22,551 bases of DNA from a virus. Lineage: Duplodnaviria; Heunggongvirae; Uroviricota; Caudoviricetes. This document shows, in pieces, positions 9,797-12,340 of this stretch. The stretch is taken from IMG/VR virus record IMGVR_UViG_2534681934_000013, one strand, 5' to 3'. Both the position numbers and the translations under genes were made by a program. Each line of letters begins with the position of its first letter. Position 1 is the first letter of the stretch. Under the pieces are notes generated by a model. That model had not been told where the DNA came from, did no database searches, and was given only the letters and a program-made list of their open reading frames with translations.

Positions 9797-10513
9797 ATGG
9801 AAACCGTATTTGACGCACTGAAAGCACTGAAAAAAGCCTCTTCACAGGTAGTGGCATCGCGCCTTGGAATCAGCCGCGAAGATGCTGTCAACGAACTGTG
9901 GAAACTGAAGCGCCGTGGTGAAGCGGATAACAAGGGGTCGATGTGGTGGCTGACTCAGACTGGTGAAAGTGAACCAGTGTCACCGGTACCGAAAGTGACA
10001 GCGCAAATGCTGACTGAGGCGATTGAACATCATGGCCCACAAACGGCGGATGAGCTGGCACTGATGTTCGGGATTACCTCCCGCCGGGCGAATTCATCAC
10101 TGGCCATGGCAATCAGCAAAGGGCGTCTGATTCGCGTGAATCAGGGCGGTAAATTTCGGTACTGCATACCGGGCGCTGATTTACCGGCAGAGCCGAAAGC
10201 CGCATCCATAACGGAAACGGATGGTAAAGCCTTTCCTCAGCCAGCAGGTGTTGCGTTACCAGTCGGGGAAGCGGAAACACAGGAAGAAATAAAAACGGAA
10301 AGTGTGGCGGTCACAGTGCAGTCACAGCCGTCGTTCACCAGAAAGCATCCGGATGGTCTGATTTTACCATCGCTGCATGTGGCTAACCGCGAGCTGCGCC
10401 GGGCAAAAGGTCAGGTTCAGAAGTGGGAGCGAGTCTGCGCCGCGCTGCGGGAGCTGAACAAGTGCCGGGATATTCTCCGGGATATTACCGCCACCAGAGA
10501 ACAGCAGCGGTGA
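9797..10513 (+). CDS. hypothetical protein with two winged-helix-like repeats
   Basis: 238 aa; ATG with GGAGGA 7 nt upstream. Two similar segments ([26 protein letters not shown] and [32 protein letters not shown]). No family assigned. Confidence 0.5.
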
Positions 10514-10827
10514 GTGGGTGGAAGACGTGGTGCCGGGCGGAAATCATGATACTCCGGCAGTGTGCGGGAACGATGAAGGTAAAAAGCGTTGGCGCACTTA
10601 TCGGACGAACTGAAGCGGCAGTGAGAACGAAGGCACGGGAGCTGGGCATCAGCATGATGTTACGTGGTGATTTTCACCCGTCGGCAAAATATTCTCAGCG
10701 TGATATTGAGCTGGCGCGGCAACTGCATCAGAGAGGCATGCAAAGAAGGGAAATTGCCAGAAAATTAGGCATGCCGCTGCGCATAGTGAATAACTACGTT
10801 TATTTCGACAGGAGGGTGTCTGCGTGA
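10510..10827 (+). CDS. small DNA-binding protein with two HTH-like motifs (NinH-like?)
   Basis: GTG 10510 overlaps the upstream stop (GTGA). Motifs [20 protein letters not shown] and [19 protein letters not shown]. Alternative ATG starts at 10546 or 10573. Confidence 0.45.
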
Positions 10828-11051
10828 AAATCCTGTATCAGGATTACGGCCCGGTGGGGCAGGTGGTTATCAGCAGTACTGTAATGGAGTTTCGGAAGCA
10901 TAACCGTGTGGTGGATGCTGTGCTGTTAACCTGTCCGGGGATATCGGCGAGTCGTGCAGGTGTGTTTATTATGAAGACGAAATTATATGGCAGTAAGGCG
11001 TGGATAAAGAAGGCGTATCGTGTAGCGTTGCAGGAGGTTAACAGTGAGTGA
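10824..11051 (+). CDS. hypothetical protein (75 aa)
   Basis: GTG overlapping the upstream stop, with GGAGGG 7 nt upstream; no recognisable motif. Confidence 0.4.
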   Translation: MKILYQDYGPVGQVVISSTVMEFRKHNRVVDAVLLTCPGISASRAGVFIMKTKLYGSKAWIKKAYRVALQEVNSE

Positions 11052-11355
11052 AATTAAAGAAATGCCGGTAGTTCGTGACGGATATGGCTACTGGACACAT
11101 CCTGAATATGAAAAATTCTGTGATGGTCGGGAATATATTTCAACGGAAGAGTTTAACGCCTGGATGGAGGAAAATAATCTTCAATACGTCCTCTGCTTCA
11201 GAGATGAAGGATGTGCTGACCTTGATGCGTGTGATGCTGATATTTCTGCATGGGAACCGGAACGACCAGAGGGCGATGGCTGGTTTATTGGTTCCATTCA
11301 TGATACGGAAGATGGCCCGGTTTGTGTCTGGTTGCGAAATAAGGCTGAAGCATAA
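11044..11355 (+). CDS. hypothetical acidic, Cys-containing protein (103 aa)
   Basis: GTG 11044 with AGGAGG 5 nt upstream, overlapping the upstream stop by 8 nt; acidic and Trp/Cys-containing; function unknown. Confidence 0.45.
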   Translation: MSEIKEMPVVRDGYGYWTHPEYEKFCDGREYISTEEFNAWMEENNLQYVLCFRDEGCADLDACDADISAWEPERPEGDGWFIGSIHDTEDGPVCVWLRNKAEA

Positions 11356-11482
11356 AGGCGATAAACCAACTAACAACTAAATACTGAAGATTTAAATCAG
11401 AAACGATTTTTATTAAATCCTTAACCGGAGGGATTCCTGCACCCTCAGAACATCAGGAGGCCGCCCGAAAGGGCGGTAAGAA

Positions 11483-11701
11483 ATGAAACATTATTTAGAA
11501 AAAAATTACCCACGAAAGAGCAGAACAACAGAGTTTCTGTTTTTCATTCTGTTTATAGTGTTGATGATACCGATATCCCCGCTATTACTGGTCTGGATAA
11601 TTGGAAGGACATTTGAACCAGTTATTGAGCTATATACCGATGTGACATGGGAATCATTCAGCGCACTGCACAATAAAATTAATCCGTATAAGGAAAACTG
11701 A
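11483..11701 (+). CDS. small membrane protein (72 aa, one predicted TM helix)
   Basis: Hydrophobic core FLFFILFIVLMIPISPLLLVWIIG; AGGAGG lies 22 nt upstream with a GC hairpin in between. Confidence 0.45.
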   Translation: MKHYLEKNYPRKSRTTEFLFFILFIVLMIPISPLLLVWIIGRTFEPVIELYTDVTWESFSALHNKINPYKEN

Positions 11702-11702
11702 T

Positions 11703-12260
11703 ATGAGCACTATTACCAGAGAACGCGCGGAGATTAAATCATACATCACAGGCTTCCTGAGCGACTCGGCGCACGATAACAAGTCTTCAGACAGCCTGCT
11801 GGCTAATGTGTTTCGTATCGCGCTGGCATCACTGGAAGCAGAGCCGATAGCAATGGTAGTGCCTGATGAAATGGATTTGCTTACCTGCCATCTCGACGGT
11901 GTAACTAAAACATATGCTGATGGCTGGAACGCCTGCCGCGTCGCCATGCTTCAGGCCGGAAACTTTCGGGAAAATAAGAATTCGTCAACCAACAATTTTC
12001 GGGAAATCTCGGAAACGTCAACCAGATCTCCGATAACTCTGGATGGCTGGATAAGCTGTACTGAGCGAATGCCTGAAAAGAGCCAGAACGTGCTTATTTC
12101 GATGAATATCGATAGCGAGGCTGGGCCATTAATATATTCCGCACGCTATCTCGGAGGCACGTTCCGGCGCGGAGGTATAGCAGTTAGTCCGGGTAATGAT
12201 CTTAGGCAAGCAACCCACTGGATGTCGCTACCAGAACCGCCGCAGGAGGTGAATCAATGA
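11703..12260 (+). CDS. DUF551-like prophage protein (tentative)
   Basis: ATG 1 nt after the upstream stop; C-terminal WISCTERMPE...ATHWMSLPEPP resembles the DUF551 signature as I recall it. Confidence 0.5.
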   Translation: MSTITRERAEIKSYITGFLSDSAHDNKSSDSLLANVFRIALASLEAEPIAMVVPDEMDLLTCHLDGVTKTYADGWNACRVAMLQAGNFRENKNSSTNNFREISETSTRSPITLDGWISCTERMPEKSQNVLISMNIDSEAGPLIYSARYLGGTFRRGGIAVSPGNDLRQATHWMSLPEPPQEVNQ

Positions 12261-12340
12261 CCTGGCCTGAAGCATTCACAACGGTAGGAATTGCGATGGC
12301 GGTGGCGCTGGTGGTGTATTCGATTTGCCGCTGGGGATAA
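12257..12340 (+). CDS. 27-aa hydrophobic micro-protein (unannotated small ORF)
   Basis: ATG overlaps the upstream stop (ATGA) with AGGAGGTGA 5-8 nt upstream; MTWPEAFTTVGIAMAVALVVYSICRWG is one TM-like helix. Below the ORF-track size cutoff. Confidence 0.3.
   Translation: MTWPEAFTTVGIAMAVALVVYSICRWG

Follow-up and report, generated by a model that had tools for sequence, protein, structure and literature searches.

Seven genes in the ren/nin-equivalent region of a defective O157:H7 prophage are probably separate cassettes, among them a rarely annotated 27-aa membrane peptide gene

We analysed a stretch of 22,551 nucleotides from a Caudoviricetes virus (IMG/VR record IMGVR_UViG_2534681934_000013), referred to as the window, whose own numbering is used throughout. 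Seven co-oriented ORFs occupy positions 9797-12340 of the plus strand. All seven were found at the coordinates first given for them, and all look like real genes. Together with their immediate neighbors, the genes are as follows.

9302..9763 (+): lambda-P-like replication (helicase loader) gene, directly upstream of the ORFs (Pfam Phage_lambda_P, E 1e-15; RefSeq annotation)
9797..10513 (+): ORF1, 238 aa, full-length YdaW/DUF1627 protein (Pfam PF07789, phrog_630)
10510..10827 (+): ORF2, 105 aa, small basic HTH protein (phrog_323), with a GTG start overlapping the ORF1 stop
10824..11051 (+): ORF3, 75 aa, basic protein (phrog_1001, E 8e-38, full length)
11044..11355 (+): ORF4, 103 aa, small alpha/beta domain (phrog_1372)
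11356..11482 (+): AT-rich untranslated spacer, 127 nt, ending in the ORF5 translation-initiation region
11483..11701 (+): ORF5, 72 aa, single-pass membrane protein (DUF4014; Pfam PF13198, phrog_1832)
11703..12260 (+): ORF6, 185 aa, with an N-terminal part (residues 1-114) and a C-terminal DUF551 (residues 115-181; Pfam PF04448, phrog_60)
12257..12340 (+): ORF7, 27 aa, hydrophobic single-helix peptide, MTWPEAFTTVGIAMAVALVVYSICRWG
12382..12706 (+): hok/sok type I toxin-antitoxin locus, directly downstream and ending the ORF string (mok 12494-12706, hok 12551-12706)

Many sequenced E. coli O157:H7 genomes match the segment at 100% identity, and the exact sequence is already annotated in many RefSeq genomes. 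The gene order in O157:H7 is cro, YdaT, DnaT-like O, P, the seven ORFs, hok, YgiW-like, DUF968, RusA and DUF1133, and the immunity and replication genes of the prophage resemble those of Rac. The slot between P and the hok/sok, DUF968, RusA and Q-like genes is the position of lambda ren/nin, in agreement with the original prediction. The downstream locus is identified as hok/sok by an Rfam sok/hok RNA match (RF01794, 113.5 bits against a gathering score of 59) and a Hok/Mok ORF; RefSeq names a Hok/Gef protein here, and the layout is that of hokW of phage 933W. Where lambda has tR2, the end of P carries a weak terminator-like site (9738-9754). The "LygF" label in phage records belongs to another gene, of 140 aa, which the window does not contain, and the Pas sRNAs, which the literature ties to DUF1627-containing prophages, are sited elsewhere, between the esterase and holin genes.

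We next considered how the ORFs are joined and where their Shine-Dalgarno (SD) sequences lie.

9784-9788 (+): ORF1 SD, GGAGG
10510-10513 (+): ORF1/ORF2 junction, GTGA stop/start overlap
10810-10816 (+): ORF3 SD, AGGAGGG
10824-10827 (+): ORF2/ORF3 junction, GTGA stop/start overlap
11032-11037 (+): ORF4 SD, AGGAGG
11044-11051 (+): ORF3/ORF4 junction, GTG at 11044 and TGA at 11049-11051, 8-nt overlap
11355 to 11483 (+): ORF4/ORF5 junction, ORF4 end and ORF5 start separated by a 127-nt untranslated gap
11455-11460 (+): ORF5 SD, AGGAGG, 22 nt from the ATG at 11483
11460-11477 (+): 7-bp GNRA hairpin GCCGCCC-GAAA-GGGCGGT between the ORF5 SD and ATG, then 5 nt to the ATG at 11483
11690-11694 (+): ORF6 SD, AAGGA
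11699-11703 (+): ORF5/ORF6 junction, TGA at 11699-11701 and ATG at 11703, 1-nt spacer, no overlap
12244-12251 (+): ORF7 SD, AGGAGGTG, a perfect SD
12257-12260 (+): ORF6/ORF7 junction, ATGA stop/start overlap

Stop and start codons overlap or abut at five of the six junctions, and the coupling chain is broken once because of the 127-nt untranslated gap between ORF4 and ORF5. The sequence thus bears out a co-oriented, tightly packed and mostly stop/start-coupled string. Of the overlaps that had been reported, those at 10510, 10824, 11044 and 12257 are present, whereas ORF5 and ORF6 are separated by a 1-nt spacer at 11703 and the ORF4-ORF5 gap had gone unreported. Similarly, the proposal that each ORF has its own SD holds for ORF1, ORF3, ORF4, ORF6 and ORF7 whose good SDs lie 5-8 nt upstream of the start, but not for ORF2, which is preceded only by ..CAGAGAA.. 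and has no good SD, while that of ORF5 is 22 nt off, across a hairpin. The junction pattern is beyond chance, yet it is nothing special: lambda P-ren-nin-Q has like junctions, with 4-nt overlaps at 6/9 and the same ATGA style.

The seven proteins had been described as uncharacterised, which is true of their function, although six of them belong to catalogued families (DUF1627/YdaW, phrog_323, phrog_1001, phrog_1372, DUF4014 and DUF551). NCBIfam gave nothing above cut-off for any of the seven, and sequence searches of the PDB with ORF1-4 and ORF6 returned only noise. Small ORFs were grouped with neighbor genes in a cluster listing, and none proved to be a true fusion on checking. The individual biochemical roles considered below are guesses from fold and charge.

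ORF1 matches Pfam PF07789 over the entire profile (263.3 bits, cut-off 28.1, positions 1-155 of 155) and phrog_630 at E 6e-119, with 56% identity to K-12 Rac YdaW over residues 1-139 (BLASTP E 6e-56). In the AlphaFold model, a three-helix HTH of low confidence (residues 4-39) precedes a clear winged helix (69-123), after which an acidic, disordered stretch (129-190) links to a long C-terminal helix (193-237); Foldseek matches included the tandem winged-helix protein ScpB and the MarR and ArsR winged helices. The two winged-helix-like repeats first proposed for ORF1 are therefore recovered in part, with one clear winged helix and tandem-winged-helix proteins among the structural matches, the first unit being the low-confidence HTH. 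In ~100 loci, ORF1 always lies 22-35 nt past a lambda-P-like or a DnaC-like loader gene, two genes unrelated to each other. Although it sits directly downstream of P, as lambda Ren does, ORF1 was rejected as a Ren protein: BLASTP gave E = 29, and the phrog_142 match (E 4.4e-4, no stretch passing) is generic winged-helix resemblance and no more. YdaW is regarded as a promoter-less predicted transcription factor (PMC9308461). Judging from the model, ORF1 likely binds DNA, combining an HTH and a winged helix with a coiled coil; it always accompanies the replication module, in the place of lambda ren.

ORF2 is very basic (pI 11.1) and matches phrog_323 at E 1e-25, with homology reaching residue 5. 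Together with weak HTH_7 and HTH_3 matches in the profile search, this partly bears out the double HTH ascribed to it; TPR matches in the PDB sequence search were compositional, with no matching stretch. ORF2 is likely a small basic DNA-binding HTH protein. RefSeq starts it at ATG 10546, but we favor the originally proposed GTG at 10510 because many homologues have CTG at the RefSeq start codon, the GTG/GTGA at 10510 is conserved, and Pantoea and Erwinia homologues have an ATG start at the equivalent place. On this comparison, the RefSeq start is probably 36 nt too far downstream. ORF3 matched nothing in Pfam or the PDB. Its full-length homologues, at 55-61% identity, occur in other, unrelated phage contexts, and of 28 distant loci, 27 contain none of the other ORFs and the remaining one has ORF7. 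In the one such locus that was read (L233), the ORF3 homologue lies upstream of an integrase-like ORF.

ORF4 is strongly acidic (pI 4.1, net charge -17), and its homologue alignment is conserved, as expected of a real gene, with an invariant C-terminal motif, GWF.GSIHDTEDG.VC.WLR. It occurs alone in 25 other enterobacterial species, in two of which ORF2 directly follows it, ATGA-coupled. Searches of the proteins fused to the ORF4 domain returned a single Pfam domain, a DHH phosphoesterase, and the PHROG partners are all in function-unknown families. The DUF551 assignment of ORF6 was upheld, with residues 115-181 matching PF04448 at 72.5 bits (cut-off 22, E 5e-20); the N-terminal part (1-114), searched alone, gave no Pfam match. 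By analogy, ORF4 is likely a portable phage domain, and both ORF4 and ORF6 are likely acidic, protein-binding-type proteins similar to the variable Ea22-type C-terminal domains.

ORF5 was correctly predicted to be a 72-aa membrane protein: it matches PF13198 over residues 1-72 of 72 (87.2 bits, cut-off 23.2, E 1e-24) and has a hydrophobic 19-mer at residue 19 (KD 2.9). ORF5 and ORF7 are both likely small inner-membrane proteins. The hairpin in front of ORF5 appears in both the MFE and centroid folds (-16.4 kcal/mol, z -3.7) and would reduce the SD-AUG distance from 22 to 5 nt, within the restored spacing of 5-11 nt of T4 gene 38-type sites. There is no covariation in the hairpin because it is invariant in 74/80 loci. 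ORF5 thus has a predicted split ribosome-binding site of the T4 gene 38 type.

The spacer raises the question of whether the segment is really two units, namely an early operon of ORF1-4 and a "moron" of ORF5-ORF7, perhaps with hok/sok, that the repressed prophage would express from a separate promoter inside the 127-nt gap. The gap is AT-rich (GC 0.37-0.42) and folds better than shuffled sequence (z -3.1), the spacer and ORF5 move as a block behind differing upstream genes, and in 933W, ORF7, hok/sok and a ygiW-like gene are again found together, within a different operon context. The SD-hairpin unit moves with the DUF4014 genes; in many loci, however, the upstream stop codon lies no more than 5 nt from it, which leaves no room for a promoter. 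A simple consensus scan of the gap and the sequence preceding it turned up neither a sigma-70-like promoter nor a terminator, and the same holds for all of 9797-12340, although such a scan may miss a promoter in the AT-rich gap and yields no more sites than shuffled sequence. ORF5, ORF6 and ORF7 also assort independently: ORF5 and ORF7 without ORF6, and ORF6 and ORF7 without ORF5, were both seen among 72 related loci. We therefore regard a division into two units as improbable.

The same 72 loci speak against the seven-gene unit implied by the original prediction. They show 16 presence/absence patterns, counts that represent non-independent events given that the loci are mostly from E. coli and close relatives, with many near-identical prophages. 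All six of ORF2-7 are present in only 29/72, ORF3 is found in loci that lack ORF4, and every gene can be found apart from the others, as with the solitary ORF4 and ORF3 loci above. Prevalence is likewise unequal, with individual genes in 502-1347 genomes compared with 500 for the whole arrangement. The co-occurrence across divergent genomes by which a co-inherited module is judged was not found.

These observations bear directly on whether the seven ORFs are one dedicated system, such as anti-phage defence, anti-defence or superinfection exclusion, with translational coupling as a consequence. Such a system would account for the tight, co-oriented coupling, for the presence of two DNA binders and two membrane proteins, and for the complete arrangement at ≥99% identity in ~500 genomes; moreover, an overexpression screen picked out K-12 YdaW as a "blocker" of the toxicity of retron-Sen2 RcaT (bioRxiv 10.1101/2020.06.22.160242). 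Nevertheless, lambda nin genes of unrelated function have the same coupling, the 500 complete copies amount in essence to a single clonal prophage, and the spread in gene GC across the segment (0.36, in ORF5, to 0.55) points to separate origins. PADLOC-DB defence models matched none of the seven ORFs, giving only E ≥0.02 and no matching stretches. With every gene also found without the others, we consider a dedicated system very unlikely.

ORF7, predicted as a 27-aa hydrophobic peptide, is indeed hydrophobic and conserved. It is carried by 93 phage records and 1348/5426 complete E. coli genomes (about a quarter) and occurs in many Stx phages, where ORF7-like peptides are also found after Ea22/DUF551 genes. 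Its ATGA overlap is present in 96/97 loci, behind at least four unrelated upstream C-termini, and homology breaks exactly at its start and stop. The gene is called in some GenBank records; at 84 nt including the stop codon, it is below usual gene-caller length limits. That ORF7 and ORF3 are chance reading frames, the ORF7 region being mere upstream flank of hok/sok, deserves hardly any credence: although RefSeq (PGAP) and the 933W annotation leave ORF7 uncalled and it ends 42 nt before the Rfam sok/hok match starts, its 21 peptide variants hold frame, start, stop, length and hydrophobic pattern at ~70% nucleotide identity, pN/pS is 0.17-0.59, the perfect SD accompanies the conserved ATGA junction, ORF7 exists without hok downstream, and ORF3 has the full-length homologues described above. 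From these alignments, ORF7 appears to be a membrane peptide that is conserved and under purifying selection; it is seldom annotated and, in nearly every locus, coupled to the preceding gene by an ATGA overlap. More tentatively, it may be a functional inner-membrane micro-protein, a mobile "tail gene" translated solely by ATGA-coupled reinitiation and often placed right before hok/sok, that acts on a host membrane target or the Hok system and not as part of seven genes; we see this as possible but doubtful.

Comparison of the loci shows the genes to be separate cassettes, swapped by recombination at gene boundaries. With good probability, the segment thus comes from the rightward early operon of a defective lambdoid O157:H7 prophage, where it makes up the promoter-proximal portion of an accessory region equivalent to ren/nin and consists of separate cassettes, not a single machine. 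As the anatomy suggests, one long early transcript would run from a pR-like promoter before the cro-like gene, through the replication genes, into the seven ORFs; the candidate promoter, at 7488-7517, is among seven matches that the consensus scan produced, a total no higher than in shuffles. Given the tight packing, ribosomes ending one gene could restart on the next, which would matter most for ORF2 and ORF7, in the case of ORF2 because it has no SD of its own. At ORF5, translation would restart after the 127-nt gap, with the hairpin placing the SD next to the AUG.

Little is at stake in the operon itself, a typical mosaic accessory region that is DUF-annotated in hundreds of O157:H7 genomes. 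What is new comes down to small points: the conserved ORF7 peptide, the correction of the ORF2 start and the split ribosome-binding site of ORF5. The first of these means that a conserved 27-aa membrane peptide gene present in ~1350 complete E. coli genomes is absent from RefSeq annotation, while the ORF5 site, as a natural split SD/hairpin arrangement outside T4, could be a test case for the mechanism. The YdaW family and the acidic ORF4 domain, whose roles are predicted, are reasonable candidates for phage-host interference screens.

Several known systems resemble parts of the segment. The YdaW of K-12 Rac occupies the same place after the replication genes (ydaU-ydaV-ydaW), but it is 186 aa long and resembles ORF1 only as far as about residue 151, so that the end of the linker and the long C-terminal helix of ORF1, the full-length form, have no match in it. 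In T4 gene 38, the SD and AUG lie 22 nt apart and a hairpin brings them to 5 nt (PMC3014915), the same two numbers as for ORF5. Genes 38 and 25 share with ORF5 an over-long SD-AUG spacing and a stable intervening hairpin; they differ in that sequence and gene are unrelated, and the ORF5 site is predicted from sequence and folding. ORF7 resembles KdpF as a 27-aa single hydrophobic helix with a sub-threshold TIGR02115 match (E 0.024, 14.7 bits), but its score falls short of the 26.9 cut-off for membership, and it is phage-borne with no adjoining kdp operon. DUF551 links ORF6 to proteins of the Ea22/exo-xis region, including YfdS of CPS-53 and Ea22 variant V2, in which portable C-terminal domains are joined to varied partners (PMC10834534). 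DUF551 and the ORF4 domain are similarly portable, mostly acidic and fused to varied partners; in contrast, ORF6 has no detectable Ead/Ea22 coiled-coil signature, and the Ea22/exo-xis genes belong to the leftward early operon whereas ORF6 belongs to the rightward one.

The closest parallel to the whole is lambda ren-nin, from P to Q, along with the nin regions of further lambdoid phages such as the P22-like ones. Where lambda ren overlaps P, ORF1 starts 34 nt after the P stop, and a hok/sok locus is embedded downstream. The content also differs, with DUF1627, an HTH protein, phrog_1001, phrog_1372, DUF4014, DUF551 and a 27-aa peptide in place of Ren and the Nin proteins; as originally noted, no Nin family (NinB-NinI) is among the Pfam, PHROG or NCBIfam matches of the seven ORFs. 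Nin regions are regarded as mosaic in the literature (for example, PMC8022706). With them the segment shares its slot between the replication loader and RusA/Q-type genes, its co-oriented small genes of non-essential type with ATGA/GTGA overlaps at most junctions, and a mosaic content that varies from phage to phage.

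In a defective lambdoid prophage, the segment at 9797-12340 is the mosaic accessory region equivalent to ren/nin, and the distribution of its genes indicates that the seven ORFs are not one unit. All seven are genes: ORF1 (DUF1627), ORF5 (DUF4014) and ORF6 (DUF551) passed Pfam gathering scores, ORF2, ORF3 and ORF4 matched PHROGs 323, 1001 and 1372 (E 1e-25 to 4e-56), and the homologues of ORF4 (n = 228 across Enterobacterales) share 19 invariant columns. The ORFs are co-oriented on the + strand, with GC contents of 0.36 (ORF5) to 0.55 (ORF1, ORF7), and their junctions were read from the sequence as follows.

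9797-10513, + strand: ORF1, its stop within the GTGA at 10510-10513, the GTG of which lies in the ORF2 frame
10824-10827, + strand: GTGA at which ORF2 ends and ORF3 starts
11044 (GTG) and 11049-11051 (TGA), + strand: ORF3/ORF4 junction, an 8-nt overlap
11355, + strand: end of ORF4
11483 (start) and 11699-11701 (stop), + strand: ORF5, with a 127-nt gap in front
11703, + strand: start of ORF6, after a 1-nt spacer behind the ORF5 stop
12257-12260, + strand: ATGA shared as stop and start by ORF6 and ORF7

The original prediction of seven coupled ORFs, each with a Shine-Dalgarno (SD) sequence, was largely right, but it missed the untranslated, AT-rich 127-nt gap between ORF4 and ORF5. Moreover, while a good SD lies 5-8 nt upstream of ORF1, ORF3, ORF4, ORF6 and ORF7, the sequence upstream of ORF2 has no SD worth the name, and that of ORF5 is 22 nt away.

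Loci with ORF1 or ORF4 relatives were taken from IMG/VR, the seven ORFs and their flanks were scored by tblastn, and the pattern count was restricted to the 72 loci with both ORF1 and hok, i.e. the complete interval. ORF2-7 occurred in 16 presence/absence patterns among these loci, with all six present in only 29. Near ORF4 homologues from 25 other enterobacterial species, the other ORFs were absent, except that ORF2 lay directly downstream of ORF4 in two loci and ORF6 was matched weakly and partially in another. Loci picked via ORF3 included ORF3 without ORF4, and 27 of 28 distant ORF3 homologues (55-61% identity) had no other ORF nearby, the remaining one having ORF7; at the single locus of this distant group that we inspected, the homologue lay upstream of an integrase-like ORF. 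Prevalence in complete E. coli genomes was unequal (ORF1 836, ORF2 770, ORF3 526, ORF4 777, ORF5 968, ORF6 502, ORF7 1347), with the whole arrangement in 500 and at least 80% of the segment in ~500 of 5426. Given these patterns, the notable seven-gene operon that had been proposed was not borne out. The sole fixed neighbour relation was that of ORF1, always 22-35 nt downstream of a replication loader gene that was either lambda-P-like or DnaC-like. Since 4-nt overlaps occur at 6 of the 9 junctions in lambda P-ren-nin-Q, coupling is a trait of such operons rather than a sign of joint function. PADLOC defence models matched none of the seven ORFs. The genes are independently exchangeable cassettes in a compact coupled layout that would share one transcript, and we infer co-transcription and reinitiation across the string. 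What remains of interest is the corrected start of ORF2, the split ribosome-binding site of ORF5 and the rarely annotated micro-protein ORF7.

For ORF2, the start originally predicted at 10510 is preferable to the RefSeq ATG at 10546 because many homologues have CTG at the latter position, the GTG/GTGA at 10510 overlapping the DUF1627 stop is conserved among homologues, the homologue in Pantoea and Erwinia (there ATGA-coupled to an ORF4 homologue) has ATG at the equivalent position (MSRWVRAEIM...), and the phrog_323 alignment extends to residue 5 of the long form. The RefSeq/PGAP start is therefore probably wrong.

The initiation region of ORF5 (11455-11485) consists of the SD AGGAGG (11455-11460), a 7-bp hairpin with a GAAA (GNRA) loop (11460-11477), 5 nt and the ATG. 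The hairpin, which appears in both the MFE and centroid folds, reduces the 22-nt spacing to 5 nt. The same two figures are reported for T4 gene 38, in which a structure of this kind enhances initiation (PMC3014915); ORF5 would likewise have a split ribosome-binding site. The unit accompanies DUF4014 genes while the upstream genes differ, and it was unchanged in 74 of 80 related loci, the other six having an ordinary GGAG 5-6 nt before the ATG; since the hairpin is invariant, covariation lends it no support. A conserved spacer element at 11410-11448 (AATCCTTAACCGGAGGGATTCCTGCACCCTCA), in which GAGGG and CCCTC could pair, accompanies the initiation region in several phages with differing upstream genes, ArgO145 included.

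ORF7, a 27-aa peptide, is unannotated in RefSeq and in phage 933W but is annotated in some GenBank records. It is carried by 93 phage records and 1347-1348 complete E. coli genomes. Among 97 related loci we found 21 peptide variants (MxWPEAFxxxGxAMAxAxxVYxICRWG), with start, stop, length and hydrophobic pattern kept down to ~70% nucleotide identity and a pairwise pN/pS of 0.17-0.59 (pS reaching 0.8). Its ATG overlaps the preceding stop as ATGA in 96 of the 97, the preceding ORFs falling into at least four unrelated groups (several DUF551 types, an '...EDILR' family, a coiled-coil family and others). Blocks of homology run from exactly its ATG to just past its stop. Both ORF7 and ORF5 are predicted single-helix membrane proteins.

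ORF1 is a full-length version of the K-12 Rac protein YdaW, which is 56% identical over residues 1-139 and lacks the C-terminal part. Although the AlphaFold model of ORF1 was poor as a whole (pLDDT 59), its domains were clear.

Residues 4-39: three-helix HTH
Residues 69-123: winged helix (pLDDT 76-79)
Residues 129-190: acidic disordered linker
Residues 193-237: 45-residue helix

Foldseek hits included tandem winged helices of the ScpB type as well as many winged helices of MarR/ArsR proteins. Homology to lambda Ren was rejected, the PHROG profile match being weak and the BLASTP E value 29. Little has been published on YdaW: PMC9308461 lists it as a predicted transcription factor that is promoter-less, and an overexpression screen picked it up as a 'blocker' of retron-Sen2 RcaT toxicity (bioRxiv 10.1101/2020.06.22.160242). 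With a pI of 11.1, ORF2 is very basic, and its HTH matches are weak; ORF4, with a pI of 4.1 and a net charge of -17, is strongly acidic. The ORF4 domain, for which there is no Pfam family, was found by profile search in 705 clusters (50% identity). In many of these it is fused, N- or C-terminally, to further phage domains of unknown function, and in one to a DHH phosphoesterase; in these comparisons it behaves as a portable domain. DUF551, at the C-terminal end of ORF6, is known from Ea22 variant V2 and YfdS as a portable module (PMC10834534, PMC4776307).

Many E. coli O157:H7 chromosomes are 100% identical to the 2.5-kb segment. In NZ_CP033605.1, RefSeq gives the order CI-like repressor, Cro-like, YdaT, DnaT-like O, lambda-P-like loader, DUF1627, 'DNA-binding protein', two hypotheticals, DUF4014, DUF551, Hok/Gef, YgiW-like OB protein, DUF968, RusA and DUF1133 protein. 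Matches of the whole window to O157 genomes are confined to 3-4 pieces spread over about 35 kb, so the source prophage is rearranged or deleted. At 713-7454, + strand tail genes (three ORFs of a split tape measure, minor tail M and L, J fragments) run directly into the CI-like repressor gene (6816-7454, - strand); no integrase/recombination region intervenes. The features downstream of ORF7 are as follows.

12382-12706: hok/sok type I toxin-antitoxin locus (mok 12494-12706, hok 12551-12706; Rfam sok 113.5 bits)
12826-13170: YgiW-like OB-fold gene
16849-16921 and 17025-17098: two tRNA genes ahead of the SASA esterase gene
17871-18043: sRNA STnc100, also ahead of that gene
18180-20030: SASA esterase gene

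The stretch after the esterase gene (20030-20480) is relevant to the placement of the PasA/PasC sRNAs, which a 2026 preprint locates between the esterase and holin genes in DUF1627/RusA/TerB-containing prophages.

A consensus scan that yielded no more sites than shuffled sequence gave no promoter or terminator within 9797-12340 and a pR-like match at 7488-7517, directly ahead of the cro-like gene. The same scan, no better than shuffled sequence, marked a weak terminator-like hairpin and T-run (GCCGGAAGGCAGCTGGT TTTATTT) at 9738-9754, the extreme end of the P-like gene and the same place as lambda tR2. In lambda, ren and ninB-ninI fill the slot that the ORF string fills here. The ORF7-sok/hok-ygiW block is the same in Stx phage 933W (its hokW locus), except that there it lies behind ead/Ea22-like genes rather than replication genes.
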